From: Thermoplasmata archaeon
GTDB taxonomy: Archaea; Thermoplasmatota; Thermoplasmata; GCA-020350865
DNA: 64,000 nucleotides
Direction: 5' to 3'
Assembly (NCBI GenBank): GCA_020348445.1
Contig: CP070751.1
Span: 407,772-471,771, forward strand
Part shown: positions 40,337 through 57,796 of the stretch, piece by piece
Layout of the letters: the number at the start of each line of letters is the position of its first letter
Numbering within the stretch: position 1 is the stretch's first letter
Made by a program: the position numbers and the translations under genes
The notes under the pieces: model-generated
Told to the model about the DNA's origin: nothing
The model's input: only the letters and a program-made list of their open reading frames with translations
The model's database searches: none

Positions 40337-41212
40337 TTAAAATATTAGATGGTTTAAGATGCCCGCCTTTTCCTTATTCAGTTTGGTGCAAATGACTTCC
40401 TCTCTCCCTCCGATTGCCGAGATAATATCCTCCCTCTTCTCAACCTCAGCCAAAATCACAGTTGCCGGCCCTGTCCCAGAAATCCCAGCAGTCACAGCAC
40501 CAGCCTCAATCGCCTTCTTCGCAACTTCTGTATCCAATCCCATGGCCTCTCCATAAGCCATGCCGTTCATTCGAATCGCGGATATGTAATCACCTTTCAT
40601 TGCCAGGTCATGGGCCTCAGCCAGAGTCCCCCTGATCCTCTTCAGTCTTTGAATATCCACCTCGGATTTCCTGATCTTCATCTTGGGAACATGGATTATA
40701 ACCTCATAGTCCTCATCAAAGGGATACTGGTTCAATATCTCCCTTATGATATTATCCGTGACCACCACATTACCAAAATAAGTAGCGCAAGCATCGTCGA
40801 AAGCTCCCGTGAGTGTGACCTTGGCCAAAAGGGAAGCATTGATCCCCATATTGATTACTTCCATATCAGAATATTCCTTTCCAAGAGCCGCAAATGCCGC
40901 AAGCACGATGGCATTGGAAGCCGCACTCGAGCTTTTCAGTCCCCTCGATATAGGGATATCAGAAGTTGTGATTATCCTGGCTCCGTATTCTAATTCCAAT
41001 TCAAATTTTTTCAGAACCTCCAAGACACAATGCTTTGCTAGGTCTGTATTTTCGCCTTCGTCCCCCCGAATCTCCACCTCGAAAATACCAGGCTCATTTG
41101 TAAGTTCCACTTTCGCCTCGGTCTTTAGTGCGACTCCAAAGGCCCCACCTTTACCCAAAGCAATGCCGTTTATTATGGTAGCAGCACCGTGACAGTACGC
41201 ACTAGCTTCCAA
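40337..41212 (-). CDS. aroK: Archaeal (GHMP-type) shikimate kinase, TTG start
   Basis: GA.TI.N.IA.G.G.A.G, IP...GLKSSSA, TGAFDDA.A and GISGTGP. Confidence 0.92.
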   Translation of the reverse strand: MEASAYCHGAATIINGIALGKGGAFGVALKTEAKVELTNEPGIFEVEIRGDEGENTDLAKHCVLEVLKKFELELEYGARIITTSDIPISRGLKSSSAASNAIVLAAFAALGKEYSDMEVINMGINASLLAKVTLTGAFDDACATYFGNVVVTDNIIREILNQYPFDEDYEVIIHVPKMKIRKSEVDIQRLKRIRGTLAEAHDLAMKGDYISAIRMNGMAYGEAMGLDTEVAKKAIEAGAVTAGISGTGPATVILAEVEKREDIISAIGGREEVICTKLNKEKAGILNHLIF

Positions 41213-41224: not shown

Positions 41225-42085
41225 TTATTTTTCAGTATCCAGTGCATCAAGAACCACTTTTTGCATAACATCGATAGGAGCAGATTCGCAAGTCCACTTC
41301 TCAAAGGCCATTACACCCTGATAAATGAACATCTCATAACCATATATCACCTTAGCCCCGCTCTTTTGGGCTGCCAAAACAAGTTCAGTATTTTTAGGTG
41401 AATAGACCATGTCAAATACGATTATGTCCTTTCTCAGTAGCTCTGGTGATATAGGACTGCCTTGAGGACCTCCTTTCATTCCCACAGGCGTGCAGTTTAT
41501 GATCATGTCAACATCTTCGATTATCTCCTCGATATCATCCAAAATGTTCACTTTGATTGTACCTTGGGATTTGAACTTTGTTGCCAATTCCCTTGCCCTT
41601 TCAAAGGTTCGGTTCGCAATGACTACATCCTTTCCCATCCTGGCCAAAGGCAATGCAATTGCCCTTGCAGCACCCCCGGCACCGAGAATCAATATTGTCA
41701 TGTGATGCTCAAGATCTATTTTATTTCTTCTAATTGCCTCGACTGCAGCAGGTGAATCTGTGTTGTAACCCGTGAGCTTTCCTTCATCATTTACGATGGT
41801 GTTCACTGCCCCAAGATCCTCTGCCAATTCATCCACATCATCCAGATGCTCCATGACCTTGATTTTAAAGGGGAGGGTCACAGAAAGTCCCCGAAAATTC
41901 CTTTTCTTAAGGTTTTTCATGGTATTGGCAAGTTCGCTTTCCTCGATTTCAAAGGAATCGTAAACGTAATCAAGACCTAACTTTTTAAATGCGGCATTAT
42001 GCATTTTCGGGGAGAGAGTGTGTTTTAAAGGTTTGCCTATTATTCCGCATATGCGTTTTTTGGAATTACTATCATTGCGTTTCAT
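41225..42085 (-). CDS. aroE: Shikimate dehydrogenase
   Basis: HTLSP.MHN, G.SVT.PFK, AVNT, GYNTD, LGAGGAARA, NRT, IN.TP.GM and DMVY.P. Confidence 0.95.
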   Translation of the reverse strand: MKRNDSNSKKRICGIIGKPLKHTLSPKMHNAAFKKLGLDYVYDSFEIEESELANTMKNLKKRNFRGLSVTLPFKIKVMEHLDDVDELAEDLGAVNTIVNDEGKLTGYNTDSPAAVEAIRRNKIDLEHHMTILILGAGGAARAIALPLARMGKDVVIANRTFERARELATKFKSQGTIKVNILDDIEEIIEDVDMIINCTPVGMKGGPQGSPISPELLRKDIIVFDMVYSPKNTELVLAAQKSGAKVIYGYEMFIYQGVMAFEKWTCESAPIDVMQKVVLDALDTEK

Positions 42086-42115: not shown

Positions 42116-42823
42116 TCATAGGTTTTCAAGGGCATCCCATAATTCCAAAAGCGTCCTTATATCAACCTGCCCGTCTTCCACCTTCTTCTCGGGGTCCACT
42201 GCGGCATATACCATCTCACATCCAATTAACGGGGCCAAAACCCTTGTAAATTGCCCATAGGACCCCATTCCCATGACAGTGTATTTGTGATTCAAATCCT
42301 TGGCTGTTTTTCCACCCTTGGTCACATTTAGCACATCTTCGAAATTGTTGCTAGTTAAAACCACCTTGGCTATATCCCCTTCAGTTTCCTTGCATTGTTT
42401 TATCAGGGCAAAAATCTCGGACCATGACGGTGTCTTAAAAAAATCATGATAGGAGATAATGGTTTTTATTTCCTCTTTTTTGGCCAAGGCAATCAACGGA
42501 TCCCTCAAATTCCCCTCCATTTTCAATTCCAAATCAATGTAATCAAAGCCTGTCGTTATCGCCTCTTCAAGCAAAGCTGTCCTTTTCTCCTCATCCTCCT
42601 TGTAATCGCCGCCATCCCAATAGGGGCGGATCGTTAAAATTAGGGGCAAGCCAGTGTCCTTCTTTATTTCAGATAATCGGTTCAATATAGAAGAAGAAAT
42701 TGGCTCTTTTAACTTATCCAGTCTCAGCTCAATTAGATTTGCACCAAGGGATTTGCATAAATCAGCTTGTGAGACTAAATCAGTTACGCTTTGTTCAGCC
42801 AATGAAACACATACCAAAGTCAT
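42116..42823 (-). CDS. aroD: Type I 3-dehydroquinate dehydratase (start reassigned to 42823)
   Basis: IELRLD, LTIR...DGG, YIDLE, ISYHDF..TP, KVV and MG..G..TRV. The longer ORF-track start overlaps the upstream gene. Confidence 0.9.
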   Translation of the reverse strand: MTLVCVSLAEQSVTDLVSQADLCKSLGANLIELRLDKLKEPISSSILNRLSEIKKDTGLPLILTIRPYWDGGDYKEDEEKRTALLEEAITTGFDYIDLELKMEGNLRDPLIALAKKEEIKTIISYHDFFKTPSWSEIFALIKQCKETEGDIAKVVLTSNNFEDVLNVTKGGKTAKDLNHKYTVMGMGSYGQFTRVLAPLIGCEMVYAAVDPEKKVEDGQVDIRTLLELWDALENL

Positions 42824-42836
42824 GCTCTCACGTTTT

Positions 42837-43877
42837 TTATTTCTCTTGGATGCTCTCATCCACCTTCGTCCCGAAATGCCTTCCCTTATCATCCATCCAT
42901 ACAAGTACAGAGTCGCCTTCATTCAGATCCACTATGGAAACAGGCTTTTCTTGGGAAATCAATCGTATAGTCTCGGCATTCTGGAGTATTATATTGAACG
43001 TTCTGCCTTCATATTCAGCTTCCAGGAAAACCATGGGCCTTTTCTCGATCTTCACCCTTCCGAGAATCACAGGCCTTGTGCTTCCCTGGCTGTCAATGAC
43101 AAGGACCTCGTCCCCGGACTTTAAATCGGACAGGTACTTTGTCTTTTCATTGGGGGCTAGAATATAAGAGTGAACAGGTCCAGCATTGACCCTAAAGGGC
43201 CTTGTGTCCGCAAACTCTGATTCAACAGATTCTGAGTGGACCAGGAACATGCCATTGGACTGCGAGCCTATTAGCATACCCTCGCCAACGTTCAACATAG
43301 AACACGTATCAATGCAGACCCTGTCCCCCATTCCCAGGGGTTTTAACTTGGTAATCCTGGCAGATACAAGGGAAAGGGAGCCTTTTTCAAATTCATCCAT
43401 AAATCTCCGAAGGTTGTTTATCCTATTAAAATCCACGGTAGATAAAACAACACCATCCACTCCAACCTCCAAAGTCTCGAAAAACAATTTTGCATCCTCT
43501 ACATTATTCACCTTAACAAGGAGTTTGGATTTCGAATTTTGAAATGCGGCAATAAGGTTTTCAACTGGTATAACCTTCCAGTTTTCGGCAGAAACAAGAA
43601 CATAATCCATCTTCCCTTCCAGGGCTTTGGCCCTCTCCTCATCGGTTTTATCTTGGATCTCGATGTGTTCCCCCTGTCCATCATCCATCTTGATTTTCCC
43701 CTCTGAAAGAGAAATCAAATTGAACTTTCCCAGTTTTTGGAATATCTCCTGATCCTCCTCTCTCACAATTATATCTGTGAAATTGTTTATCAGTGCAGTT
43801 ATGGCTATTTTCTTTCTAATTTCCTGCTTTTTGTGAACGTCCGAGTCTATCCATATGATTTTTTTCAACGTTTTCAC
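42837..43877 (-). CDS. aroB': 3-dehydroquinate synthase II (AroB'), GTG start
   Basis: W.VIP.ENLIA, LE.GVDGV, G.GDRVCIDTC, GMLIGS, RPFRVNAG.VHSY, VKIE.RP and LQNAETIRL. Confidence 0.95.
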   Translation of the reverse strand: MKTLKKIIWIDSDVHKKQEIRKKIAITALINNFTDIIVREEDQEIFQKLGKFNLISLSEGKIKMDDGQGEHIEIQDKTDEERAKALEGKMDYVLVSAENWKVIPVENLIAAFQNSKSKLLVKVNNVEDAKLFFETLEVGVDGVVLSTVDFNRINNLRRFMDEFEKGSLSLVSARITKLKPLGMGDRVCIDTCSMLNVGEGMLIGSQSNGMFLVHSESVESEFADTRPFRVNAGPVHSYILAPNEKTKYLSDLKSGDEVLVIDSQGSTRPVILGRVKIEKRPMVFLEAEYEGRTFNIILQNAETIRLISQEKPVSIVDLNEGDSVLVWMDDKGRHFGTKVDESIQEK

Positions 43878-44674
43878 CCTGTGATTTCCTTGTATGCATC
43901 ATCAACTTCGGCGTCCTGGCAGATGATTTTCACCAATGCCCGGGTCATTCCAATTATATTGTCATGCTGAAATATGTTCCTGCCAATGGAGATACCAGCG
44001 GCCCCTGCCTTGATTGCGTCGTGTACCATGGTAAGCACATCCATGTCAGAGTCGGTCTTGGGTCCCCCGGCAATGATAACAGGAACAGGGCATCCTGAGA
44101 TGACCTCCTTGAAGGTATCAATACTTCCCGTGTAATTTGTCTTAATCACATCAGCACCCAACTCAGCACCAAGTCTGGCCACATGTTTTACCAACTCAAC
44201 ATCAAAAGGGTTCTTTACCCCGGGCCCTCTCGGATACATCATTGCCAAAAGGGGAATCTGCCATCTATTGCACTGACCAGATATGAATCCCAGATCCTGC
44301 AGCATCTCAGGTTCTGTCTCTGCTCCCACATTCACGTGAATTGAAACAGTATCTGCACCCATTAATAGAGCCTCCTCCACCTCAGCAACCAATACCTTGG
44401 CATTTGGATCAGGGCTCATTTTAGTACTTGCAGAAAGATGAAGTATGAATCCAATATCAACTTGGGCTTTTTCAAGTCCAAATAAAGCATTGCCTTTATG
44501 AAGAACCACGGCAGTTGCACCCCCTTCTGCCACCTTTTTTATGGTATCCTCCATATCAACGATACCCTTTATAGGGCCTGAAGATACACCGTGATCCATT
44601 GGTACTATCACAAATCGTCCTGTTTTTTTGTCCTGAATCCTTCGCAGACGGATATTCTTTCCAAGGTCTGTCAT
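43874..44674 (-). CDS. aroA': 2-amino-3,7-dideoxy-D-threo-hept-6-ulosonate synthase (AroA')
   Basis: VPMDHG, HKG, HLSAST..SPDPN.K, VS.HVN.G, LAMMYPRG, AELGAD..KT.Y, AGGP and GRNIFQ. Confidence 0.9.
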   Translation of the reverse strand: MTDLGKNIRLRRIQDKKTGRFVIVPMDHGVSSGPIKGIVDMEDTIKKVAEGGATAVVLHKGNALFGLEKAQVDIGFILHLSASTKMSPDPNAKVLVAEVEEALLMGADTVSIHVNVGAETEPEMLQDLGFISGQCNRWQIPLLAMMYPRGPGVKNPFDVELVKHVARLGAELGADVIKTNYTGSIDTFKEVISGCPVPVIIAGGPKTDSDMDVLTMVHDAIKAGAAGISIGRNIFQHDNIIGMTRALVKIICQDAEVDDAYKEITG

Positions 44675-44705: not shown

Positions 44706-45641
44706 TCACAGCACTCCCGCAATAAACGAAAGTGTCAAAACAATGGTGAACGTCAAAATATAACCCTTGTGCAATTTTCTTGCCTTCGCTTTTGTATATC
44801 TTTTATATATGGAGCGGCAGAGATTGAAGCATATGAAGTTCCATACAAACACAACTGTTAAAATGAGTATTTGTAGTATGATATGGGTTTGATAGACAGA
44901 AAAATAGGGGATGGCCCAGATAACCAAACCGGGAAAAGAGAACGCAAAAGAAGTGGCAGCGGCAGCCTTGGGCCCGAAACGAACAGGTGTTGTATTTTTT
45001 CCACCTGCTTTGTCATTTTCAAGGTCCCTTAAATCCTTTGCCAGGGTTTCGGCAATGGCCATAAAGAGCATCAAGGCTATAAGGAAGTACAGCCCGTTAA
45101 ATACGTTAACAAGAGCTATGTTCTCATACCGTATAAGATATGCAGCTATCGCAAAATAATAAAGCAGTCCAAATCCCACCCAGAACAGCTGGGAGATTAT
45201 GGGGCGGCCGTCCATCTTAAGTGGCTTCATGGCATATTGATAGGACAGTAATATCAACAAGAAGGCAGAAAGGAATATCAAGATATCGAGGTAGAATGCC
45301 AAAATCAATCCAATAGAATACAATATGATGGCTTGATTCCTGGCAGCTTTCTTTGAAACAACACCAGTGCACAAGGGCCTTTTCTTTCTCGATGCCTCTG
45401 AACTTCTGCAATCTGAATTAAAGTCCCCAAGGTCGTTCATGGTACAGGCTCCTGCATCTGCAATCACGGCAGTCATAATAAATAGTATAAAATGGGGATT
45501 TGGAGCATGTTGGGCAATGATGGCATAAAAACCCATTGAAGCAAAAACATCGAGCCATACAAGTTGCTGCGGCCTAGTTAAAATGAAATGGCCCTTTAGC
45601 TTCTGGCCCAATGTGAACTTCTTTTTTTCCAATTTCTTCAC
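44706..45641 (-). CDS. UbiA-superfamily membrane prenyltransferase, GTG start
   Basis: About 8-9 TM segments; Asp-rich NDLGDFNSD...RP...G and KDLRDLEND...G..TTPV..G; Y...P.K. Confidence 0.88.
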   Translation of the reverse strand: MKKLEKKKFTLGQKLKGHFILTRPQQLVWLDVFASMGFYAIIAQHAPNPHFILFIMTAVIADAGACTMNDLGDFNSDCRSSEASRKKRPLCTGVVSKKAARNQAIILYSIGLILAFYLDILIFLSAFLLILLSYQYAMKPLKMDGRPIISQLFWVGFGLLYYFAIAAYLIRYENIALVNVFNGLYFLIALMLFMAIAETLAKDLRDLENDKAGGKNTTPVRFGPKAAAATSFAFSFPGLVIWAIPYFSVYQTHIILQILILTVVFVWNFICFNLCRSIYKRYTKAKARKLHKGYILTFTIVLTLSFIAGVL

Positions 45642-46960
45642 GCGCCTTCAACTACCTCGGATTTACCAGATACCGCATCAACAACCCTGGAAAGGGGTTT
45701 TCCCGGTCGAATCTCGCTGTAATTGTACAAACTCCCGGGAGGAACCAGCATAACCTCCACGTTCTCCTTTAACACAGATTCGAAGTTGGATTTGATCTCG
45801 TTCTTCAGATTTGGATATTGATCCCTGTCCCTGTGCTCGGCAATTATCTGCGTGCGGCCTTTCATTACCTTGATCTTGTACCAGACACCGTTTAATTTTG
45901 ATTTGTAAAGCATCTCCTCCAGCTCAATTGGGAAGAACTTCTTTTTACCAATTGATAACTCAGTGCGCTTTCGTCCCAGGATCTTCATTGTGGGAAGGGG
46001 AAGACCGCAGGGACACTGGTCCTTTTCTATGATAATCACATCCCCTGTTTCGTACCTGAGAATGGGCATGGCCTCCCGCCATGTTGGGGTGACAACTGAC
46101 TTTGCCCTCTCCCCAGGCGCAGCCTCAGTGCCGTCATCATGATATATCTCAGTGAACATGACAAAGGACGGCAGGTGCAGCACGTTATTTTCGCAGGGTA
46201 TCGCCGCTCCGATTTCGTTTTGTCCAAGAAGTGATAGGAATTTTGCACCGTACAGATCGCCAAGAACCTTTCCCCTGGAATTTGCACAGGGCTCTGCCCC
46301 TGAGACAATCAATTTGATGCCTATGCTTTTTGGATCAACACCCTGGTCCATGAGAATGTTGGCATAGGAGAAGGCATCAGTTGCTGCGGCACCCAAAATC
46401 GTGGGTCTGAGCCTCTTCAGGGCATCAGCCACCTCAAGGGGAGGGTACATGTTGTTTCGTGTACCCATGGGAATTATGGTAACCCCTGCTTTCTGATTTA
46501 TGAGATCGGCAGAACGTCCTGCAAGGGTTCGGGTGTAGGGATAACATAATGCAACCCTATCCTCGGGGGACATTAACTTCTGAAACACAGGAAGGCATAT
46601 TGCTAGGTCAATGGACCTCTCAAGCTCGTCTTTGGTAACCCAGATGGGAACATGTCCTCCTGTTGTACCTGAGGTCTGGGAGTAAATCAGGCATTTTTGC
46701 CCTGGCGTAACTGCCAGCATATCAGTGGGGTCAATTTCCACAAGTTCGGATCTTTTAGTAAGGGGAACCTTTTCCTTGAAATCTTTGATGCTCTTGATAT
46801 CCCTTCCCTTAACGCCAGCAACTGTCAATTTCCTGGAATAGAATTTACTTTTATAGGCGTAGTCCACGGCCTTTTTTAGACGTTTTAAGACCGAGCTCTC
46901 CTTATCTGCCATCTTGATTATACCAGGAAACTTCTGCAACATCTTTGCCTTAAAACCCAT
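45638..46960 (-). CDS. Phenylacetate-CoA-ligase/F390-synthetase-like adenylate-forming enzyme
   Basis: P-loop TSGTTG, GAEP, GQNE.G and MP..RY.TGD...ILGR; PL..R..L N-terminal signature. Confidence 0.85.
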   Translation of the reverse strand: MGFKAKMLQKFPGIIKMADKESSVLKRLKKAVDYAYKSKFYSRKLTVAGVKGRDIKSIKDFKEKVPLTKRSELVEIDPTDMLAVTPGQKCLIYSQTSGTTGGHVPIWVTKDELERSIDLAICLPVFQKLMSPEDRVALCYPYTRTLAGRSADLINQKAGVTIIPMGTRNNMYPPLEVADALKRLRPTILGAAATDAFSYANILMDQGVDPKSIGIKLIVSGAEPCANSRGKVLGDLYGAKFLSLLGQNEIGAAIPCENNVLHLPSFVMFTEIYHDDGTEAAPGERAKSVVTPTWREAMPILRYETGDVIIIEKDQCPCGLPLPTMKILGRKRTELSIGKKKFFPIELEEMLYKSKLNGVWYKIKVMKGRTQIIAEHRDRDQYPNLKNEIKSNFESVLKENVEVMLVPPGSLYNYSEIRPGKPLSRVVDAVSGKSEVVEGA

Positions 46961-46970
46961 AACATACCTC

Positions 46971-48047
46971 CTATGCTCTCCTATTCATAAAATCGTACCG
47001 CAATCGATCTTTACGGGGAATTATTGAATCCTGGGGAACGTACCCTGACAACATCAGATGATCTGCGCAAACAATTGCAGATACTGCCTCTGCCACAACA
47101 AGAACCCTGGGTGTATAGTTCGCATCGAACCTGCCCTCAGTTGCCATTTTCGTGTTCTTCATGGTCCTTAAATCCACGCTCTTTTGGGCTATTAAAATCG
47201 ATGGTGTGGGCTTCACCGCAAACCTGAACACCACAGGTGGTCCATAGGTGATTCCCCCGAGAACCCCACCAGCGCGGTTTGAGCTTGTGGTGACAGAGCC
47301 TCCTTGTGTTACAATGGGATCATTGAATTCCGAAGCTCTCATGCGTGCAGAATCTAGCCCGTCTCCCAACTCGAAGGTCTTTATTCCAGGTATATTCAGT
47401 ATGGCGTGCCCCAAATCGGCCTGGAATCTGTTGAATGCCGGAGCGCCCAGGCCCGAGGGAAGATTTTGAATCTGAATCTCAATTATCCCCCCTGTTGTGT
47501 CGCTGTCCCTCTTGGATTGCTCAGCCAACTTTTCAATGATTTGTTCTAAATTGTTATTATCCACCTTTACTCCGCCAAGCTCAAGCATAGTGCTTTTTAT
47601 TGCTATCTTCTTGAGAAGACAAATTCTCTTGGCAACTGCACCAGCTGCAATAGTCGATACCCAGGTCCTTCCGCTGGCCCTGGATCCCCCTCTCCAGTCG
47701 ATATGACCGTACTTCATCCTGTACGTCAAATCGGCATGCCCTGGCCTTGGAGTGTGCATTATCTTTTTGTACTTTTCGCTCTCCACGTTCGAGTTCCTGA
47801 CTATAATTGAAATCGGAGTTCCGATGGTGTAGCCCTCGAAGACACCGCTTAAAATCTGGAAGTTGTTCTCCTCGACACGTCTTGTCAGAAGGGGATAAGG
47901 GACATCTCTGTCAAGCTCACTTTTTATATGCTGGCGAGAAAGTCTTATTCCTGCTGGGCATCCGTCGATTACACAGCCAATTGCATCTCCGTGGGATTCT
48001 CCCCAGGTTGTGACCCTGAAGATGTTTCCCAAAGTGTTTCCTGCCAA
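46971..48047 (-). CDS. aroC: Chorismate-synthase-like flavoprotein (divergent), TTG start
   Basis: TWGESHG..IG.VIDG.P, PRPGHAD, GG++G, N..GG.LGGI..G and .AVKPTPSI. Several signature positions are altered (see findings). Confidence 0.85.
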   Translation of the reverse strand: MAGNTLGNIFRVTTWGESHGDAIGCVIDGCPAGIRLSRQHIKSELDRDVPYPLLTRRVEENNFQILSGVFEGYTIGTPISIIVRNSNVESEKYKKIMHTPRPGHADLTYRMKYGHIDWRGGSRASGRTWVSTIAAGAVAKRICLLKKIAIKSTMLELGGVKVDNNNLEQIIEKLAEQSKRDSDTTGGIIEIQIQNLPSGLGAPAFNRFQADLGHAILNIPGIKTFELGDGLDSARMRASEFNDPIVTQGGSVTTSSNRAGGVLGGITYGPPVVFRFAVKPTPSILIAQKSVDLRTMKNTKMATEGRFDANYTPRVLVVAEAVSAIVCADHLMLSGYVPQDSIIPRKDRLRYDFMNRRA

Positions 48048-48066
48048 TACCCCTCACCTCGTTCTG

Positions 48067-49011
48067 CTACTGGACGAAAACCAATTTTCTTTTGGATGAG
48101 GGGTCGTCAGCCAGTTCGCGAACAAAAAACTTGCCTTTTGAGCTCAATTCAAATAACATAACAAATAATATGGGAAATATCGAGGCTAAAAAGAATCCTG
48201 TGGAAAACTGCCATGCAGTGTATATGGAATCAAAAAGTGCCAATGTCATTAGGATCAATATAAAAGGAATATAGGCGACAACTCCAATCAATACTTTTAA
48301 TTCAATGCCATTTGTGGGATTTTTCTTGGCTCGAATCATATTGACTATTGTGATTCCTGATATGGCCCCAAATCCCAGAAGAAAACCTCCGAGGATTATC
48401 ATCACCTGATGTTCAAAATCATACGGAAACTGATAGACATAACTGTTGAGCATCTGAATGGATATTACCCCGAACAATATTGGTAAAATGCTCCCTTTGA
48501 TCATTCGGGTTCTGTATCTGTAATTCGAGAACCGCTCTTTCTGTTTGTCAAAGAGACTTTCCTCTTGGGCTTCGGTTCCAGTCAGCTCATCGAGATCTGA
48601 CAGATAATCCTCCATTTCCTGCTCCTCGGTTTGTGTAAGTACCCCTTCTGCCACCTCGGCTTCAGCTTCTTCATAGGGCTCCTTGATCTCTTCGGCAACC
48701 TCTGTCCCCTCAGGTGCAGCAGCTCCTTCCTCCTCTGTAATTTCCAAATAGAAGTTGCATGTATAGCAGTAGTATCTGTTATATTGCTGTATATATGCGG
48801 CCTTTTGATTGCATTTGGGGCATAAATATTCGGCTGTTTCTTTTATTTCAGGTTCTGGTTGTGCTTCCCTTTCCTCCTCTTTTTCCCCAGGCTCTTTTGA
48901 CGTCACATACTTGTTGCAGGAGAAGCAGTAGTATCTGTTGTTTTCCTTGATAAAAGTGGCCCTTCTGTCACAAGAGGGACATTTAATCTGAACATCTTCT
49001 TCCAAAGACAT
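48067..49011 (-). CDS. Membrane protein with two N-terminal Zn ribbons, acidic linker and about 4 TM helices
   Basis: CPSC-x14-CFSC and CPKC-x14-CYTC, a Glu-rich linker and four hydrophobic segments. It ends 19 nt before aroC. Confidence 0.75.
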   Translation of the reverse strand: MSLEEDVQIKCPSCDRRATFIKENNRYYCFSCNKYVTSKEPGEKEEEREAQPEPEIKETAEYLCPKCNQKAAYIQQYNRYYCYTCNFYLEITEEEGAAAPEGTEVAEEIKEPYEEAEAEVAEGVLTQTEEQEMEDYLSDLDELTGTEAQEESLFDKQKERFSNYRYRTRMIKGSILPILFGVISIQMLNSYVYQFPYDFEHQVMIILGGFLLGFGAISGITIVNMIRAKKNPTNGIELKVLIGVVAYIPFILILMTLALFDSIYTAWQFSTGFFLASIFPILFVMLFELSSKGKFFVRELADDPSSKRKLVFVQ

Positions 49012-49173: not shown

Positions 49174-51060
49174 TCAAAAAACCTCTACAAGGGACCTTCT
49201 TCCCACTGGAATCATAAGAAGGTCAGCTGCGATTATAAGGCCAGATACCGCAACAATTAGAGTGGGTATCTCAGGCAAGCCCCGCTTTGTGGGGGGTGTA
49301 AGTCCTGGAATCAGATCAATTCCCTGGGGCAGATATCTCTGATCTCTGTTGTAATTGATAAACACCATAACAGGGTGTTTTGATTTGACCTTCACTGTAG
49401 AGCCCAAGGTTATGTTCTCCCAGTCCAAATGGATCTCCTCGCTGTCCCCATCATCAACTGCTATTCGGGGAGTGGAATCCAGGGCATAATAGTTGTGGGG
49501 GTCCCTCGTGGTCCATTCAGGGGGCTGTTTGAACTGGGTATCTTCGATCATCATGTCCATGTAGTAGTAGCTGCTTTCCGAGAAATCAAAGGTGACAGAC
49601 TCATGGACGTCCATTTTGGCAGAGTACGGTTTGATAAGCATATCGAAGTCCACTTCTACATCATTGTTCCCCTCTCTGAGGTTCACGACAGTGAGATATG
49701 CCTGGCTCCAGATTGGAATCTCGAATTCTGTTGATGCAGGATAGGGCACCCAGCCGTGAGGATAGAATTCAGTGATTTTTTTGTAGACAGTGAAGTATTC
49801 TTCCCCAGACATGCTTCTCCTATTATCTTCCCTCAAATACCATGTACTGTTGGCGAATGTGTAGACCAGTATGGGATCGCTTGACCTTAGATGCGCCCAT
49901 TCATATGAGGAATATTCCCGTAATTTGTAGGCAACCTTGAAATCGAACAGTCTGAGCTCACCCGGATTTAAATATCCTTTGAACGTGCCTTGATTGCCGT
50001 TTTTGTCCTTTAAATCGATTGTTGCCCCAGTGGGAGCCGAAATAAGTATTTTACCGAAACAAGGGAATAGAAAGTCTTTTCCGTCTTTTCCAAAAACCTG
50101 GACAAATCCCTGATCCGACTGTATGCCCGCAACTATGGACACAGGTTTGTCGGCACTGATTAGAACCAGGTCATCGTCGAATCCGTACTGCTCAAATATG
50201 GGATTACGGGTATAATCCCAGCCTTCGAACCTGTCAAGGATGAGAGTGGCATCGTCGTTTTTGTCAGAATAATCCCATACATTGACAGTTGTATCTGCCT
50301 CCAGGGCTGAAATCCAGCAATCTCCCGTAATTCTGGTAAATATCTTTTTTCCGTAGGCAGAGTAAATGCCCTCCCATCCATCCCAGTAGTAATCCACGAT
50401 ATAATCATAGCCTCTGTCATCCATGGTTCCCATTGGAAATAATTTATGGTGCATTACTGAGATGGGATAGTTGCTTGTAACCTTGACAATCCCGGAGATC
50501 ATTCGAAAGCCCTGGCCAACCATCCAAGTGTTTATCTGAATCTGTCTTGTTTCGTACTCTCCCAAATGAATGGTCTTTGTGAGATTTTCAGGTTTTTGAA
50601 TCTGATCCAACCAAACTATTTCTGCGCCATCACCCAGTACCCATTTTCCACATACCCCCAAATCACAATCGAATATTGTATCATTTATTGCGGTGCCGTT
50701 GAGCCATTCAATACGGATTTTTGCACCGTTCTCATAGGAAAAAAATTGAATGTTGCTGAAATTTGCCATGGGGTAGCTTCTATAGGTTGTATCTTCATAT
50801 CCTGCCCACCATGTATATATTCGATCCTGCATCAAGACAGTGGGGGGTGGAACATAGAATATAAAGTAATCGTTCACAAATGTTGTAATGTCCGAGGAGT
50901 GATAGTCAGTATGTTCTACTTGCTCAGATGTCACCCTCATAAAATCGGAAACTGCGGTGTCCATGGATTGTCTGTGTAAAAAGATATCGCTCATGGGCAG
51001 GAAGATAAGACCCACAATACATATTATCAATAATATGGGTTTTATAGCTCTAAGGAACAT
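49174..51060 (-). CDS. Membrane-anchored surface protein with repeats resembling the IgGFc-binding N-terminal domain
   Basis: N-terminal signal/TM; repeated (I/V).S(D/N)(K/Y)P(I/V).V strands; C-terminal LPEIPT plus TM plus RR. Confidence 0.7.
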   Translation of the reverse strand: MFLRAIKPILLIICIVGLIFLPMSDIFLHRQSMDTAVSDFMRVTSEQVEHTDYHSSDITTFVNDYFIFYVPPPTVLMQDRIYTWWAGYEDTTYRSYPMANFSNIQFFSYENGAKIRIEWLNGTAINDTIFDCDLGVCGKWVLGDGAEIVWLDQIQKPENLTKTIHLGEYETRQIQINTWMVGQGFRMISGIVKVTSNYPISVMHHKLFPMGTMDDRGYDYIVDYYWDGWEGIYSAYGKKIFTRITGDCWISALEADTTVNVWDYSDKNDDATLILDRFEGWDYTRNPIFEQYGFDDDLVLISADKPVSIVAGIQSDQGFVQVFGKDGKDFLFPCFGKILISAPTGATIDLKDKNGNQGTFKGYLNPGELRLFDFKVAYKLREYSSYEWAHLRSSDPILVYTFANSTWYLREDNRRSMSGEEYFTVYKKITEFYPHGWVPYPASTEFEIPIWSQAYLTVVNLREGNNDVEVDFDMLIKPYSAKMDVHESVTFDFSESSYYYMDMMIEDTQFKQPPEWTTRDPHNYYALDSTPRIAVDDGDSEEIHLDWENITLGSTVKVKSKHPVMVFINYNRDQRYLPQGIDLIPGLTPPTKRGLPEIPTLIVAVSGLIIAADLLMIPVGRRSLVEVF

Positions 51061-51088
51061 CCTGCTCTTCCTCCGTTGTATTATATTC

Positions 51089-53569
51089 TTACTTACTAAG
51101 GGTTTTTAGGAACTTCCCCTTTCCAGTGAAGGAGAGGGTTCCAACTATTCCTTTTCCTCCAGCAGCTACGGTTCCAATATCAGTTGCCATAAGTACAGCC
51201 AGAACCGGCGGCAGTAGCCAGAAAGGATCTCCTGTCGTGGTTCTCTGGGTCGTGGGTATTATGCTCAATGGGATGTCCATGTCCTGGGGCTCACACGAGT
51301 AATCCCTTGCATATCTCACCATGAGCATCACATCCTTATCGGCATGAATATGCATCATCTGGATCACGGATTCAAGCTCGTCCTGATTATCAGGCTCAAC
51401 ATCGTCCCTTTCATCACCATTGTAGTCCTCGTTATCATCCACAACGATTCTGTAGATTTCGTATGCATCAAGGGTGGCACCGGATGGTTGATTGTCAAGC
51501 CACGTTCCGTCCCAGCCGACTGAGGTATCATCCTCCAAGGCTATGATATACACGATGCATTGATGGTGGATCGCCAGATCCCATTTTTGCTCTGCCGGGT
51601 AGAAGTCGAATCCCTCTTTGAAGGTGGATATCTGTGTTTCGTCGAAAGCGTTGTCATCATTTGCCATCCAGAGCTCCACGCGAATTGGCCAATCCGAGAT
51701 GATTCTGACCCATTTTACCTCGGCAATGTAATTGTTGGAGAAGGGGCCTGAGCACATGGATGATATTGTCACCTGCTCCCCAGGTTCAACTGTAAACTCA
51801 TCATCGCCCTCGGAGGTATCGTCGAAATCAAGCTCGACATGCGCCTCCTTTTCAAGTCCTGTTATTGTAATTGCAGCCGACATTGGTACATAGTATCTTG
51901 AGCCAAGGAATCCGTAGACCTGTGTGTGAAAATTGTTGTCCCATATTCCGCCGTATATGGTAACAGGTTTTTCAGCCTTCACAACCACCCAATCGGCCTC
52001 GAAATTTCCAGAATCCACAGCCCTTTTTATGTAATCGCTTTCCATAATTTCTTTGGCGGCTTGAGGATCCTCCCAATCAACATCCCAGTCAGGCTGATAA
52101 CCAAAATATTGATAGTTGTTATCCAGTTCATTGTTGTCTCCTGCATCATCACCACCACACATCGTGTCCACGACAAAAGTGCTTGCCCACTGGAAATTCT
52201 CCCAATCATTTAACGTGATTTCTCGGGAGTCATCACCATCTGATTTATCTATTATTGTTATGTGGTTATCATCGTCGTAACTTGCTATCATGAGGTCACG
52301 GTGCACAAAACCAAAGAACTCGTCACCGTAAAAGGACCATATCGCATCGTCGGATAGGCCATTTGCAAACCATTCTGTGTTCACACCGTGGGCCACCTCA
52401 TCGTCTCCATCGACCTCGTCGTTCGGGTCGCAGTCGTCTGCAAGATCGGGTATCCCATTGTCGTTCTTGTCGATGTACCCGTCAGTTACCGTCATCTTCT
52501 GAACAGTGACGCGTCCTGAAGATTCAACCTTGATGACCCCGTCCCACATCCACCAGTCCCGAGTAGTGTAGTTAAGGATTCCCTGGTATTTATTAAGGGT
52601 TCCGGTCCACAGGATATGGTTTTCAACATACTCCAGATCAGGTGAGTTCAGGGGTCTTCTTGCAGGGTCGTACAAGTCTATTCTCCATTTTGAACGATCA
52701 AGGGTACGCCATTCACGGTCAGCGCGGTCGTTTTCATCGTCGTTGTCATCCTCCCAACAATCCTCGTCAATCCAATTATAAAATGGTTCTGGATCGTCAT
52801 CAGGGTAACTGTTTGGATTGTTGGGATTTGTACCCTCATACAGCTCCTGCCCGTCACAGTAGCCGTCCCCATCAGAGTCAACTGAGTCACCGTCATTATC
52901 ATCTTCTATTCCGCCAGTATCCTCATCAATTAATCCATCGTCATCATTATCACGGCCATCAGCACGATCCTCATTATTACTCCCGTCGTCATCATCATCA
53001 CGGGGATCTTCATTTACTCGACCATCCCTATCCCTATCTGGATTACCATCACCCCGATATATTCCACCCCACCAGCCGTGGATGGTATTTGCCGGGTACT
53101 CGTCTTTGAAGGCCTGGGTAAATATGTGGCCCTTTAGCATTGTGACAGTGATACGATTGTTGTTATCGTAACTACCTATGGCAATTGCACCTTCATCAGA
53201 AATCCAGGAATCTCCATAAAATGTGATTCCGCACCTCTCTTCGTCATTGGTCTGCCCGTTGTTGTCATCTTGATTATGACCATTGTAAATTCCCCATGGA
53301 CAATTCTGTTCGTTGTCTTCCTGTTCATATATTGCATCAATGGGACTCCAGTAGAATATGAATTCCTTGTTTACAAAGGGGGTGTAGGCACTTGTTTTCA
53401 CATCCTGGGTGATCTCCTCGATTATTCCTTTATCATGTGTGACCACATGTGTCGAGGGTAAAAGCAGTGTTCCGAACAGCATCAGCATTATTGCCAAGAC
53501 TGTAAAATAACCCAGTATTATTTCTTTAGCCTTCGGTCTATTATTTGCATTGGATTTTGCCGATTTCAT
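51089..53569 (-). CDS. Paralog of 49174-51060 with Asp-rich Ca-binding insertions
   Basis: Shares FIFY..P, W.G.(I/V)KV.S, S.YG..(I/F)F, D.S..DD, F..D.V.(I/V).A.KPV.I..G and QV.G..G..(F/Y)..P. Inserts include DNDDDGLIDED and DSDGDGYCDGQELYEGTNP. Confidence 0.75.
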   Translation of the reverse strand: MKSAKSNANNRPKAKEIILGYFTVLAIMLMLFGTLLLPSTHVVTHDKGIIEEITQDVKTSAYTPFVNKEFIFYWSPIDAIYEQEDNEQNCPWGIYNGHNQDDNNGQTNDEERCGITFYGDSWISDEGAIAIGSYDNNNRITVTMLKGHIFTQAFKDEYPANTIHGWWGGIYRGDGNPDRDRDGRVNEDPRDDDDDGSNNEDRADGRDNDDDGLIDEDTGGIEDDNDGDSVDSDGDGYCDGQELYEGTNPNNPNSYPDDDPEPFYNWIDEDCWEDDNDDENDRADREWRTLDRSKWRIDLYDPARRPLNSPDLEYVENHILWTGTLNKYQGILNYTTRDWWMWDGVIKVESSGRVTVQKMTVTDGYIDKNDNGIPDLADDCDPNDEVDGDDEVAHGVNTEWFANGLSDDAIWSFYGDEFFGFVHRDLMIASYDDDNHITIIDKSDGDDSREITLNDWENFQWASTFVVDTMCGGDDAGDNNELDNNYQYFGYQPDWDVDWEDPQAAKEIMESDYIKRAVDSGNFEADWVVVKAEKPVTIYGGIWDNNFHTQVYGFLGSRYYVPMSAAITITGLEKEAHVELDFDDTSEGDDEFTVEPGEQVTISSMCSGPFSNNYIAEVKWVRIISDWPIRVELWMANDDNAFDETQISTFKEGFDFYPAEQKWDLAIHHQCIVYIIALEDDTSVGWDGTWLDNQPSGATLDAYEIYRIVVDDNEDYNGDERDDVEPDNQDELESVIQMMHIHADKDVMLMVRYARDYSCEPQDMDIPLSIIPTTQRTTTGDPFWLLPPVLAVLMATDIGTVAAGGKGIVGTLSFTGKGKFLKTLSK

Positions 53570-53779: not shown

Positions 53780-54682
53780 TCAGGTCTCCTTTTTACCTGT
53801 AATTGTATAGCCAAAGACCGTGCTCACCGACAGTGCGTTGGACTTGCATTCCCTTGCGCAGCGGCCGCATTTGACACAATCCAGCTTGCTTTTTAAATCG
53901 TCCTCTGTGGGATCCAGGCCCATGGGGCAGACTTTTTTACACCTCTCGCATTGGGTGCACCATTTGAAATCGTACCTTCGCTTTATGGATGAGAACGGAT
54001 TCAAAAGCGAGAAAACGGCTCCCAGTGGACAGAAGTACCTGCACCATGCTCGGCCGTGTGTGAAATAGCTGAACGTGAAGTAAAATGCGAACAAGGCCAG
54101 ATGATATATGAGCCAAAAGGCGCTGACGGTCTGCCAGGTCAGCCAGTACGGCACCACCCCCAACAAAGCTCCGAAACACAGGTACCTGCACCAGAAAATG
54201 GAGGCTGTGAGGACGGCCAATATAACGACACCTACGAGGTAGATGTACTTCCACAATCTCAACCAATCAGGTGGTCTATATTTATGGGTACAAACCTTGT
54301 TGCAGGTGTCAAGGATAAGACCAAAGGGACACAGCCAACCGCAGATCGCCCTGCCCAATGCAGTGCCAAAACCAAGTACAACTCCAAATACATAAAAAGG
54401 CAACCGGAAGTTAATAACATACTGCTGCAGCATACCCACAGGACAGCCCAGCCACGCGAGCTCGCAGGCCTGGCAGTTGAGTGTGCACGTGATTCCACTC
54501 GTTCTCGGAATTGGTGCATGCCACCCACCGGGTAGCTTCCTGAAGATACCGAGTCTGTGAAATCCAAAACTAAGTACCTGGCTTACCAAACGGAACTTCG
54601 GGCCTCCCAGTAGTATGACAATCATCATAACCACTATGATTATGATCATACTTCCAAGGATTAACGGAAATTCTCCTGCCAT
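53780..54682 (-). CDS. Membrane polyferredoxin (NapH/MauN/4Fe-4S_5 family)
   Basis: C.LNC.AC...GCP.G.LQ, GR..CGW.CPFG, GR.WC.Y.CPLG, CxxCxxCxxxCP and CxxCxxCxxxC. Confidence 0.88.
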   Translation of the reverse strand: MAGEFPLILGSMIIIIVVMMIVILLGGPKFRLVSQVLSFGFHRLGIFRKLPGGWHAPIPRTSGITCTLNCQACELAWLGCPVGMLQQYVINFRLPFYVFGVVLGFGTALGRAICGWLCPFGLILDTCNKVCTHKYRPPDWLRLWKYIYLVGVVILAVLTASIFWCRYLCFGALLGVVPYWLTWQTVSAFWLIYHLALFAFYFTFSYFTHGRAWCRYFCPLGAVFSLLNPFSSIKRRYDFKWCTQCERCKKVCPMGLDPTEDDLKSKLDCVKCGRCARECKSNALSVSTVFGYTITGKKET

Positions 54683-55226: not shown

Positions 55227-56597
55227 TTATTTCTCACAAAAGGTCTGGTGTATCGCTGAGATCGTCTTTTTTAAATCAATTCTTTTAATTATGAAATGTG
55301 AAGCCACTGACGAAGCTCCTGCCGAGATCATCTCCACATTGACTCCAGCTTTGGAGACAGCAGAGAATATCTTACCTGCCAGTCCTCTATTTTCCCGTGA
55401 GCCTTCACCCACAACACATACAAGTGCTATATCGCTTAGATGGTCTATATGTTCAATTACACCGCCCTGGACTCCATTTAGGGCTTCATTGCAAATTGAA
55501 AGGTCATTTTTATGGATTAAAAGGCTGAGCTGGGTATGGGATGTTGAAACTGAATAGATATTTATATTGGAGTCACCCAGGGTGCTTGTAACTTCCTTTA
55601 ACACTCCTGGCCTGTATCCTGCACCAGCACCCGATACCTTTATTTCTATTAGGTCTTTTGAATACACCACACTTTTTATGACTTTTTCCGTCTTAAATCC
55701 CGTTTTTTCTATGGTGGTACCGTCTTTGTTAGGTTTCAATATATTTTTGATGACAATGGGTATATCCTTCTCTCTTGCAGGTTGTACAGTCCTGGGATGC
55801 AAAAGTCCTATTCCAAAATAGGCAAGCTCCGCAGCCTCATCATAGGAGAGCCTTTGGATGGTATGGGCATTTTCAATGATACTTGGATTGGCGCTCATGA
55901 ATCCATCCACATCCTTCCAAAGCTCCAGTATGTCAGCATTCAATGCATTAGCGATAACGGCAGCACTGTAGTCTGAGCCGTTTTTTCCGAATGTGGTGGT
56001 CCTCCCTTTTGAATCGCAGCCAAAAAATCCAGTGATCACTGGGATGGTACCCTTTTGAATACCGGGAAGGATGTTCTTTTTAAGATTCTCTTTGGTCTTA
56101 ATAAGATCCGCGGTGGCATTTAAGAAAATCCCGTCCGTCACAACACCCGCCAAATCCGCCTCATAGGCCTTGGCCTTGACATTCTTTGAGAGCAGCATAC
56201 CTTCCATGATATAGGCACTTGCGCGCTCCCCAAAGCTGAGTATTAGGTCCTTTGTGCGGGGCGTGAGTTCCTCTGTATAGACAACACCGTATAATAGCCG
56301 CTCCAATCTTAAAATGTGCTTGTTTAGGGTCTCGAGGATATCCTTTAAGACCGTTTTATCTGAAATGGTTTTCTTGACCATGAAAGTGTGTCTTTTCCAT
56401 ATCTTTTTTATGAATTCATCCACTTCATGCCTTTTAATTCTGGATTGTGCGATAAATTCCCTGATTTCGTTTGTCTGGCCAGAAAGAGCCGATACCACCA
56501 CGACCTTTTTTCCCTTCTCTTTTTGGATGATATTTCCGACATCCTTCATCATCTTGGGGTCCTTTATGGTGGCGCCACCGAATTTCATGACCTTCAT
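55227..56597 (-). CDS. lysC: Aspartate kinase with two ACT domains
   Basis: KFGG, VVVSA..G.T, S.GE..SA, V.TGF.G, GSDYSAA, WKDVDG...NP, SY.EA.ELA.FG..LHP and ACT domains. Confidence 0.93.
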   Translation of the reverse strand: MKVMKFGGATIKDPKMMKDVGNIIQKEKGKKVVVVSALSGQTNEIREFIAQSRIKRHEVDEFIKKIWKRHTFMVKKTISDKTVLKDILETLNKHILRLERLLYGVVYTEELTPRTKDLILSFGERASAYIMEGMLLSKNVKAKAYEADLAGVVTDGIFLNATADLIKTKENLKKNILPGIQKGTIPVITGFFGCDSKGRTTTFGKNGSDYSAAVIANALNADILELWKDVDGFMSANPSIIENAHTIQRLSYDEAAELAYFGIGLLHPRTVQPAREKDIPIVIKNILKPNKDGTTIEKTGFKTEKVIKSVVYSKDLIEIKVSGAGAGYRPGVLKEVTSTLGDSNINIYSVSTSHTQLSLLIHKNDLSICNEALNGVQGGVIEHIDHLSDIALVCVVGEGSRENRGLAGKIFSAVSKAGVNVEMISAGASSVASHFIIKRIDLKKTISAIHQTFCEK

Positions 56598-56674
56598 AGG
56601 TACACCTTTTCTGTTGCCGTATTCTCATCTTCTGTCATCCATTATTATACTAATTACAATATCTTATCAATGAA

Positions 56675-57796
56675 TTAAATGTAACCCTCCATTTCAGCCA
56701 GCTCTGCATTCATTATGGAGCATCCAGCAGCCCCTCTTACTGTATTATGTATTAAAAGGTAGAACCGTATTTTGCCATGGATCCTTTTTATTCGGCCGAT
56801 TGTGACGGCCATACCCCTTGCCCTTTCAGGCTCTCCATTGTAAACATCAAATATTGGTTGGGGCCTGCTTTCATCTTCGGTTACGATAATGGGCCTTTTT
56901 GGTGACGTAGGAGTTTTATTATCAAGACCTTCATAACCAGATAGAGCTCTTTTTACCTCCTCTTCTGAAACATCTTCCTTAAAATCCACCAAAACGGACT
57001 CAAGATGTCCGTCTCTTACAGGAACCCGTGCACAGCTTGCATATACATTGATAGGTGAATGTTCTATCCCAGAATCTGTCAATTTACCCAGTATCTTCCT
57101 GCATTCCACCTCGATTTTCTCCTCCTCGGATTGAATATATGGAACTATATTTCCCGTAATGTCCAGGGAGGGCACACCAGGATATCCAGCTCCCGAGAGG
57201 GCCTGGTAGGTGGTAACGACCACGCTCTTTATTCCAAAGGCCTCATGAAGCGGTTTTAAGGCCGTGGCAAGGCCTGTTACAGAGCAGTTGGCATTGGTCA
57301 CCACATACCCGGATTTTGTCTTCTTTTGATGCTCCACAAGAGCCAGATGATCTGGATTGATATCGGCGATAAGCAGGGGAACATAATCTGCCATACGATT
57401 GGCACTGGCATTTGAGAAAACGAAAAAACCCAAAGATGCCAGATCCATTTCCACATCCTTGGCTATTTTAGGCGGCAGGGCGCTGAATATCAGTTTTATT
57501 TCCTTATCCTTGAAGGTTTTAGGATGGATTTGCTCCACATTCATCTCGCCTATTCCCTCGGGCATTATTTCCTTTAATCTCCAGCTTGCTATATCCCTAT
57601 AAATATGACCCTGGGATTTTCCTGAAGCTACCACAACTCGCAAATCGAACCACGGATGGCCCCAAAGAAGCGCAACAAATCTTTGTCCCACGGCTCCTGT
57701 GGCTCCAATTACCGCAACTGGGATTTTATCCAGATTCTCACGACCCTGACATTCACGATATATAGAATATTTTCTTTTTTTCATTCCAGATAGCAT
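56675..57796 (-). CDS. asd: Aspartate-semialdehyde dehydrogenase (archaeal type; true start probably later)
   Basis: GATG.VGQRF, SNASA.RM...VPL, NANC, YQA.SGAG, EE.K...E, C.RVPV..GH and HNT.RGAAG. Confidence 0.95.
   Translation of the reverse strand: MLSGMKKRKYSIYRECQGRENLDKIPVAVIGATGAVGQRFVALLWGHPWFDLRVVVASGKSQGHIYRDIASWRLKEIMPEGIGEMNVEQIHPKTFKDKEIKLIFSALPPKIAKDVEMDLASLGFFVFSNASANRMADYVPLLIADINPDHLALVEHQKKTKSGYVVTNANCSVTGLATALKPLHEAFGIKSVVVTTYQALSGAGYPGVPSLDITGNIVPYIQSEEEKIEVECRKILGKLTDSGIEHSPINVYASCARVPVRDGHLESVLVDFKEDVSEEEVKRALSGYEGLDNKTPTSPKRPIIVTEDESRPQPIFDVYNGEPERARGMAVTIGRIKRIHGKIRFYLLIHNTVRGAAGCSIMNAELAEMEGYI

Follow-up and report, generated by a model that had tools for sequence, protein, structure and literature searches.

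The 64,000-nucleotide stretch of a Thermoplasmata archaeon genome analysed here (contig CP070751.1, positions 407,772 to 471,771; hereafter the window) contains, on its minus strand at 46971..48047, a gene for a homolog of chorismate synthase (AroC). This gene belongs to a distinct clade of AroC paralogs, hereafter the variant clade, whose members carry an aspartate in place of an arginine that is invariant in canonical AroCs, occur largely in genomes that lack 5-enolpyruvylshikimate-3-phosphate (EPSP) synthase (aroA), and are inherited together with a PaaK-like adenylate-forming ligase and a NapH-like iron-sulfur membrane protein. On sequence grounds, there is about an even chance that the variant AroC is a flavin mononucleotide (FMN)-dependent phosphate lyase that acts on shikimate-3-phosphate (S3P) or a derivative of it, and not on EPSP, and that it feeds a module made of the ligase, the iron-sulfur protein and a UbiA-type prenyltransferase. 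Chorismate is regarded as the obligatory end of the shikimate trunk, the seven enzymes are usually annotated together, and annotation pipelines name the variant "chorismate synthase".

A Distinct Clade of the Chorismate Synthase Family

The gene encodes 358 amino acids from a TTG start at 48047, with the Shine-Dalgarno-like sequence GAGGTGAGGGG immediately 5' of it (48050..48060, minus strand), and the N-terminus of the product, (M)AGNTLG, aligns from residue 1 to the solved AroCs. The protein matches Pfam Chorismate_synt (PF01264) over its full length with 361 bits (E 5e-108, cut-off 27), and passes two NCBIfam aroC equivalogs, NF003793 (355.5 bits, cut-off 321) and TIGR00033 (338 bits, cut-off 212); proteins of the variant clade are labelled "chorismate synthase" in public annotation. 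An AlphaFold2 model, for which a 60-sequence alignment was the input, reached a pLDDT of 94.4 and a pTM of 0.93, and in a Foldseek search with this model the matches of probability 1.00 (E 6.5e-18 or better) were chorismate synthases only. The model, with TM-scores of 0.83 against 1UM0, 0.81 against 1QXO and 0.84 against 7RCA, is predicted to fold into a beta-alpha-beta sandwich unique to these enzymes. Judged by its sequence, modelled fold and catalytic residues, the gene product is a member of the chorismate synthase family.

Its place within the family was examined with 346 aligned homologs, drawn from database hits, representatives of 50%-identity clusters and AroCs excised from 80 genome loci. 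These comprise 204 canonical proteins, 123 variants and 19 that could be placed in neither class, being N-terminal fragments or carrying mixed motifs. The canonical pattern is x-R-[RK], Asp61, GGGR and R-H-D-x-C. Two positions separate the classes completely: position 48 is Arg in 204/204 canonical and Asp in 123/123 variant sequences, and position 61 is Asp in all 204 of the former and Asn in all 123 of the latter. G122S, H307F and C310N give a nearly clean split, and the patterns R-D-[VI]-P, GGSRASGR and GRFDxN are carried by nearly all of the closest 120 database proteins, while some variant members have NHDAN or HFDAN, i.e., they have also lost the Arg of the RxD motif. These substitutions are not the product of chance or decay, since an entire clade of homologs shares them as fixed changes.

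A FastTree phylogeny was built from 236 sequences, after dereplication that left no pair at least 80% identical. In it the variants form one clade with a support of 0.84, or of 0.99 when one degenerate outlier is included, and by this sequence comparison the clade is a monophyletic group of AroC paralogs. Its named members, all uncultured, come from Thermoplasmatota, Hermodarchaeota, Riflebacteria, Ozemobacteraceae and Wallbacteria. The window gene probably encodes a functional FMN-dependent enzyme of this clade. Searches of the full-text literature, as far as it is searchable, found no description of AroC paralogs or of shikimate operons lacking aroA. A peptide-pattern search for related loci returned mostly canonical AroCs, the patterns hitting the shared GESHG region, with L002-L006 as its informative loci; a survey of the phylum of the Riflebacteria genome G004 with the query P0120 gave identities of 40-55%, values that without the sequences assign a protein to neither the variant nor the canonical class.

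Residues Kept and Residues Changed

The original prediction, made from the letters of the window, listed two AroC motifs as intact and three as substituted, and all five are present as quoted. Among the intact ones, GESHG (residues 16-20, 47988..48002, minus strand as for all motifs of the gene) includes the AroC His from which the leaving phosphate receives its proton (PMC7144000, PMC12697075), and none of its five residues G16, E17, S18, H19 and G20 varies in the curated alignment of 60 sequences; RPGHAD (residues 101-106, 47730..47747) contains the counterparts of fungal R103 and H106, an Arg and a His. Among the substituted ones, ELDRDVPY (residues 44-51, 47895..47918) stands where LDRRRPG is usual, and within it Asp48 (47904..47906) takes the place of the invariant middle Arg of RRR, which is fungal R46 (PMC11633415) by alignment to Candida lusitaniae Aro2p (7RCA). 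RFDAN (residues 306-310, 47118..47132) replaces RHDPC, with the clade-specific changes H307F and C310N around D308, the flavin-N5 base of AroC, which is kept. The change from GRSSARET to SRASGRTW (residues 122-129, 47661..47684) is real (G to S, S to A, A to G, ET to TW) and includes the clade-specific G122S, but it is a mild one, because both arginines (R123 and R127) and one serine (S125) are kept. Asn61 (47865..47867), the second fully exclusive position, replaces an Asp invariant in canonical AroCs.

The residues shared by the canonical and variant groups include R57, E59, R101, P102, H104, D106, S125, R127 and N257, as well as G260, G261, G264, G265, K279, P280, D308 and R314. The window protein thus has the catalytic and FMN-binding equipment of the family, namely the two invariant His, the flavin-side Asp, NxxGGxxGG and KPTxS, and it lacks the middle Arg of RRR (Asp48), Asp61, GGGR and R-H/S-D-x-C/T (N61, S122, F307 and N310). 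The claim that the phosphate-eliminating residues are retained is borne out, the phosphate- and flavin-related residues H19, R57, R101, H104, S125, R127, N257, K279 and D308 all being kept.

The roles of the two AroC His residues and of the flavin-side Asp have been described (PMC3509576, PMC7144000), and His17 and Arg56 have been placed beside the phosphate (PMC12697075). In an analysis based on 1QXO plus a P. brasiliensis model, three arginines, R46, R103 and R362, bind the two carboxylates of EPSP, R46 and R362 at a common anionic site, while R129 and R354 hold the 3-phosphate (PMC11633415). By alignment, the variant keeps phosphate ligands (H19, R57 and R127), the flavin machinery (H104, D308 and the FMN motifs) and a carboxylate ligand (R101), and R48D is a charge reversal at one of the EPSP carboxylate sites. 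The same study distinguishes the R46/R362 site from the R103 site and does not state which carboxylate sits in which (PMC11633415). The view of the lost residue as an enolpyruvyl-binding Arg stands in one part, since the sole invariant Arg of RRR is Asp in every variant; as to the other part, the source gives contact with one carboxylate and not specifically with the enolpyruvyl group. The RxD Arg, assigned to the phosphate in the prediction, is placed on a carboxylate in this source (PMC11633415).

EPSP Synthase, Second aroC Genes and Chorismate Users

The genome from which the window comes (G000) is a single contig of 5.16 Mb. No EPSP synthase was found in it with PF00275, which gave zero first-look candidates, or with TIGR01356, and tblastn searches of the genome with archaeal and bacterial AroA, MurA, TrpE, AroB and DAHP synthase returned nothing. 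The variant is the only AroC homolog in the whole genome; Chorismate_bind, CM_2, CM_1, prephenate dehydratase (PDT), UbiC and MqnA/D were likewise searched for in G000 and none was found, the control genomes scoring as expected. The absence of EPSP synthase, predicted for the operon, extends to the entire 5.16 Mb and to most of the relatives described next.

Among 401 Thermoplasmatota genomes, in which the variant was counted at an identity of at least 58%, AroC homologs occur in 239 and aroA in 243, and the two tallies agree family by family except in the variant-bearing families; in family f26, 5/24 genomes have AroC-like genes and 0/24 have aroA, and in family f32 the figures are 4/4 and 0/4. 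The variant is present in 12 of the 401 genomes, 10 of which have no aroA, and aroA was not found either in G001 (CP070739), a variant-bearing genome outside this sample. PDT is found in 0/12 and Chorismate_bind in 1/12 of the variant genomes. The two that do have aroA, G154 (CP070629) and G020, carry a second, canonical aroC directly beside it, and the Riflebacteria genome G004 has the variant along with a separate canonical AroC, aroA and murA. Since an ordinary AroC is also present wherever EPSP synthase exists, the variant is an extra paralog. The finding that had been named in advance as counting against the prediction, i.e., the same substitutions in the ordinary AroC of genomes with aroA, was not made, for G154, G020 and G004 keep a separate canonical aroC.

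Two of these genomes have further features of note. In G154, the canonical aroC lies in a bacterial-type operon (L102, C1:411000-430000) with DAHP synthase, aroB, an aroD-aroE fusion and aroA, followed by a B12 radical-SAM gene (ladderane-lipid/BzaD-like); aroD and aroE are missing from the variant operon of this genome. In G001, a TrpE/PabB-like protein (498 aa, below the TrpE cut-offs) and a TrpG-like protein are encoded at C1:1003063-1006818 (L095/L098), with no trp operon around them.

The Ligase and the Iron-Sulfur Protein

Directly downstream of the variant gene, at 45638..46960 on the minus strand, lies the gene for a PaaK/BagE/NatL2-like adenylate-forming ligase of 440 aa. Its orthologs (E 1e-70 or lower) occur in exactly the same 12 of the 401 genomes as the variant AroC, and always adjacent to it. 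The best NCBIfam scores of the ligase, 119.5 bits for BagE_FevW and 117 bits for PaaK, are far under the equivalog cut-offs, and its nearest solved relatives include AjiA1 (1.4e-28), PaaK (3.9e-28) and NatL2, so that the protein is best described as a predicted member of the PaaK-type/AMP-binding family, with no equivalog assigned. These nearest relatives adenylate aromatic acids (hydroxy- and amino-benzoates among them), and several form esters, not coenzyme A (CoA) thioesters.

The second partner is a NapH/MauN-like membrane poly-ferredoxin (Fer4_5), encoded 6 kb upstream (53780..54682, minus strand); relatives likewise have it in the vicinity of the operon. It has CX3CP-type Fer4_5 motifs, four predicted transmembrane (TM) helices and two ferredoxin-type clusters; its score against TIGR02163, 82.7 bits, lies below the cut-off of 213, and no nap, nos or mau genes are found near it, so that its likeness to the family is one of architecture only. 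Bacterial loci bring the two partners closer together. In L083 the gene order is variant AroC, NapH-like gene and PaaK-like ligase, and in Riflebacteria a fusion protein of 821 aa combines an N-terminal half that is 36% identical to the NapH-like protein of the window (E 5e-47) with a C-terminal half 25% identical to the ligase (E 7e-31). The Wallbacteria locus L107 and the related contig L108 have the variant clustered with periplasmic-binding, FG-GAP/ASPIC and propeller proteins; the L107 cluster ends in a NapH-like::AMP-binding fusion (15205-17035) that reaches the end of the locus, and the last gene of L108 is cut by the contig end and has no family hits. We know of no earlier description of this fusion architecture.

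A Rosetta-stone fusion of this kind is an argument for joint action of the ligase and the iron-sulfur protein. Variant AroC, ligase and NapH-like protein thus make up the conserved core, the UbiA prenyltransferase and the genes for S3P supply being archaeal additions; prenylation is not part of this core, because the bacterial clusters are without UbiA. As to the surroundings of the fusions, that of Riflebacteria (G004:C95, L103:172-2637) follows a Peripla_BP_6 gene in L109 and precedes a large protein that starts with a double zinc ribbon, and a Peripla_BP_6 gene also precedes the fusion of L107.

The Archaeal Operon

The operon lies on the minus strand, with intergenic gaps of -4 to 31 nt. 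Directly upstream of the variant gene is that of a zinc-ribbon membrane protein (48067..49011), which has a pair of zinc ribbons at its N-terminus, an acidic linker and four predicted TM helices and is kept in archaeal operons; compared with the double-zinc-ribbon protein that follows the Riflebacteria fusion, it gave no significant BLASTP match, and only the architecture is similar. Downstream of the ligase are a UbiA-superfamily prenyltransferase (44706..45641, 311 aa, about seven predicted TM segments) and the five genes that would lead to S3P: 2-amino-3,7-dideoxy-D-threo-hept-6-ulosonate (ADH) synthase (43874..44674), the archaeal first step towards dehydroquinate; 3-dehydroquinate synthase II (DHQS-II, 42837..43877); type I 3-dehydroquinate dehydratase (AroD, 42116..42922); shikimate dehydrogenase (AroE, 41225..42085); and an archaeal GHMP-type shikimate kinase (AroK, 40337..41212), which makes S3P, the presumed entry substrate. 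All are on the minus strand, as are the genes for aspartate kinase (55227-56597) and aspartate-semialdehyde dehydrogenase (56675-57796), together 55227..57796, which supply the substrate of ADH synthase. The longest open reading frame of aroD, with its start at 42922, overlaps the end of the DHQS-II gene by 86 nt (42837-42922); as the Pfam match does not set in before residue 38, translation probably starts further downstream.

This arrangement recurs in relatives with proteins that are 37-86% identical, the variant AroC, ligase and UbiA reaching 55-80%. The UbiA protein is a conserved member of the archaeal operon; its closest matches are DGGGPS and AfUbiA, and it is nearer to these than to the prenyltransferases acting on 4-hydroxybenzoate or 1,4-dihydroxy-2-naphthoate (DHNA). 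Elsewhere in G000, at C1:1208000-1212800 (L104:5005-9772), three further UbiA-family paralogs (328, 345 and 305 aa), one of them 42% identical to that of the operon, surround an HpnJ-like B12-binding radical-SAM gene; isoprenoids may be modified by the products of this cluster as a second such locus.

The interval from the NapH-like gene to the operon contains the genes of two paralogous surface-type proteins of 628 and 826 aa (49174..53569, minus strand), which have anchors at both termini and match no Pfam family. They are syntenic with the operon in relatives, and a 29%-identical homolog lies near a variant AroC and ligase in L101. The 628-aa protein was considered as a part of the chemistry and set aside, its ESM Atlas matches being only hypothetical Bathyarchaeota proteins and IgGFc-binding/DUF5719-like surface folds; the link of the pair to the module is uncertain. 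On the same strand, and next to the operon on its downstream side, a secreted NosD-like parallel beta-helix protein of 860 aa is encoded at 37508-40090.

Proposed Function

The enzymes ADHS, DHQS-II, AroD, AroE and AroK of the operon would together make S3P, which is the most likely substrate of the variant AroC. The variant would have kept the machinery for phosphate elimination and would no longer bind EPSP; acting on S3P, it may catalyse a 1,4-elimination of phosphate to give 3,4-dihydroxycyclohexa-1,5-diene-1-carboxylate, i.e., chorismate stripped of the side chain, or a hydroxybenzoate that arises from this diene. The next step would be adenylation of the diene-diol acid or the hydroxybenzoate by the PaaK-like ligase, and the NapH-like protein, working physically with the ligase, could deliver electrons to the flavin or reduce a later intermediate. 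In archaea, the UbiA-type prenyltransferase would finally join the product to an isoprenoid, giving a membrane-bound compound derived from shikimate. Taken as a whole, the picture of a shikimate exit that is independent of chorismate, in which the paralog serves as a phospho-lyase of S3P or acyl-S3P with an iron-sulfur::ligase partner, and with UbiA in archaea, to yield a new membrane-bound compound in Thermoplasmatota, Asgard archaea, Riflebacteria and Wallbacteria, is offered tentatively, at a little under even chances.

Two purposes for such a branch were considered and set aside. The head group of a classical respiratory quinone is not indicated, though still conceivable, as neither NuoH nor MqnA/D was found in G000, and the two UbiD homologs of this genome have another possible role, since archaea also use UbiD in the mevalonate pathway. 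Supply of p-aminobenzoate (pABA) for folate is not indicated either: a true dihydropteroate synthase (DHPS) is present in G000 (349 bits, C1:549124-549891, L110:1447-2286) with no PabB-family enzyme, which had suggested a demand for the branch, but DHPS occurs in 375 of the 401 Thermoplasmatota genomes, families devoid of any shikimate genes included, so that it does not track the variant. DHPS in the absence of shikimate genes is common across the phylum.

Several observations weigh against the lyase proposal as just given. The estimated completeness of G000 is only 82%, but its sequence forms one contig, and 10 other genomes repeat the pattern. Aspartate is an odd neighbour for a prenyl chain, hence the point at which UbiA acts is open to question, and the bacterial clusters do without UbiA altogether. 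With no NuoH and no Mqn in G000, the end product is not obviously a respiratory quinone of the classical kind. G001, which has the variant and neither aroA nor a canonical aroC, encodes the TrpE/PabB-like and TrpG-like pair described above, and chorismate or a close analogue could be made there; the pair might instead aminate the proposed product. Finally, a substrate modified at the ring carboxylate fits the lost Arg equally well, so the original suggestion of a substrate without the enolpyruvyl group, such as S3P, gains from the loss of aroA and the change of Arg to Asp without being singled out by them.

Alternative Explanations

This last point leads to the strongest of the alternatives, in which the ligase acts first and the variant AroC acts on S3P whose ring carboxylate is present as a thioester, ester or adenylate. 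The pathway from shikimate to cyclohexanecarboxyl-CoA, with its CoA esters as intermediates, offers a precedent for this order of events. As the lost Arg is known only as a ligand of one of the two EPSP carboxylates, a ring-carboxylate ester or thioester, made by the adjacent ligase, is a possible substrate, and the Arg would then be the C1-carboxylate ligand and not that of the enolpyruvyl carboxylate; R46 and the RxD Arg bind one and the same carboxylate (PMC11633415), and the latter, too, is lost in the variants with NHDAN or HFDAN. A thioester would also make C1=C2 a better electron acceptor for the reduced flavin, for which the NapH-like protein could supply electrons, and the strict co-occurrence and adjacency of ligase and variant are in keeping with such a partnership. 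However, the characterised relatives of the ligase take flat hydroxy- and amino-benzoates and phenylacetate, not phosphorylated cyclitols, and the operon shows no downstream enzymes that depend on CoA, which leaves this order unlikely, with perhaps one chance in a handful. Less probable again is a net redox reaction, in which the flavin would be used for the reductive removal of the allylic phosphate or for reduction of the diene, giving a reduced cyclohexene or cyclohexane carboxylate with electrons from the NapH-like protein. A dedicated membrane poly-ferredoxin that is inherited with the variant, and even joined in one protein with the partner ligase, speaks for it, given that a redox-neutral lyase would require just catalytic priming of the flavin, as do H307F and C310N, which alter the surroundings of the flavin-side Asp; but no sequence feature demands net redox chemistry, and ordinary monofunctional AroCs need an external flavin reductant, too.

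The variant could also be what its annotation says, an ordinary chorismate synthase that receives EPSP from an unrecognised, non-homologous enolpyruvyl transferase and passes chorismate to unrecognised enzymes. The passing of the NCBIfam aroC equivalog cut-offs, the presence of all catalytic residues and the TrpE/PabB-like enzyme in the aroA-less G001 are what this explanation would lead one to expect. It is nevertheless improbable, marginally more so than the redox reaction, in view of an Asp at a position that is Arg in every one of the 204 canonical sequences, the absence of six chorismate-consuming families from G000, an operon in which no unassigned soluble enzyme is left, and the separate canonical aroC of the aroA-bearing G154 and G020 (beside aroA) and of the Riflebacteria genome G004. 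Were the variant the maker of chorismate in these three genomes, their second aroC would be redundant. That the gene is a shikimate-pathway relic, decaying or without catalytic function, in an auxotroph for aromatic amino acids, for which the lack of downstream aromatic amino-acid genes in G000 might be cited, is very improbable: an unbroken reading frame follows a strong ribosome-binding site, the model has a high confidence (pLDDT 94.4), the catalytic residues are invariant, the clade-specific residues are fixed across phyla, and the operon and partners are conserved.

Significance

Should the variant prove to be a phosphate lyase of S3P or a derivative, a new enzyme activity would be added to a flavoenzyme family famous for its mechanism, and it would be explained why some archaea that are auxotrophic for amino acids have six shikimate genes but no aroA. 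Metabolic reconstructions that deduce the synthesis of chorismate or aromatic amino acids from the variant gene would need correction, for which R48D together with D61N provides a simple rule to separate the paralog from true AroC. The product of the module formed by the variant AroC, the PaaK-like ligase and the NapH-like protein may be a new lipid-linked cofactor or membrane compound.

Comparison with Known Systems

The closest known system is AroC itself (EC 4.2.3.5; PF01264, TIGR00033; 1QXO, 1UM0, 2O12 and 7RCA), with which the variant has in common the family, the fold, the FMN motifs NxxGGxxGG and KPTxS, the His pair, the Asp beside the flavin and the Arg and Ser residues that bind phosphate, and by analogy probably also the anti-1,4 elimination of an allylic 3-phosphate. 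The variant differs in forming a separate clade, in the changes of the middle Arg of RRR to Asp, of Asp61 to Asn, of GGG to GGS and of RHDxC to RFDxN, and in its genomic setting: EPSP synthase and chorismate users are lacking, a canonical AroC stands alongside where aroA is present, and the ligase and NapH-like protein are co-inherited.

Compounds like the proposed products are known from other routes. The chorismatases FkbO, Hyg5 and XanB2 and the chorismate lyase UbiC start from chorismate and remove its enolpyruvyl group, giving 3,4-dihydroxycyclohexadiene carboxylate or 3- and 4-hydroxybenzoate, which are precursors of prenylated or polyketide products. Their folds are unrelated to that of the variant, and the route proposed here would never attach the enolpyruvyl group in the first place. 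The cyclohexanecarboxyl-CoA pathway (AnsJKLM/ChcA of Streptomyces collinus, and Alicyclobacillus) is a branch that leaves the shikimate pathway before chorismate and uses a CoA ligase, a flavoenzyme-type 1,4-elimination and reductions; unlike the module of the window, it has no AroC homolog, shikimate kinase step or NapH-like protein, and its enzymes are unrelated.

With respect to the partners, the best matches of the window ligase, i.e., NatL2 (6SIW), AjiA1 (6WUQ), BagE/FevW and PaaK, all adenylate aromatic carboxylic acids; the window ligase is about 25-30% identical to them, and the fusion to a membrane poly-ferredoxin seen in bacteria is not described for the known enzymes. The NapH-like protein shares with the NapH/MauN/NosR proteins the CX3CP-type Fer4_5 motifs, the four predicted TM helices and the two clusters, whereas its score is below the family cut-off, it has no Nap, Nos or Mau context, and its partner, encoded in the same neighbourhood or fused to it, is an adenylating ligase.

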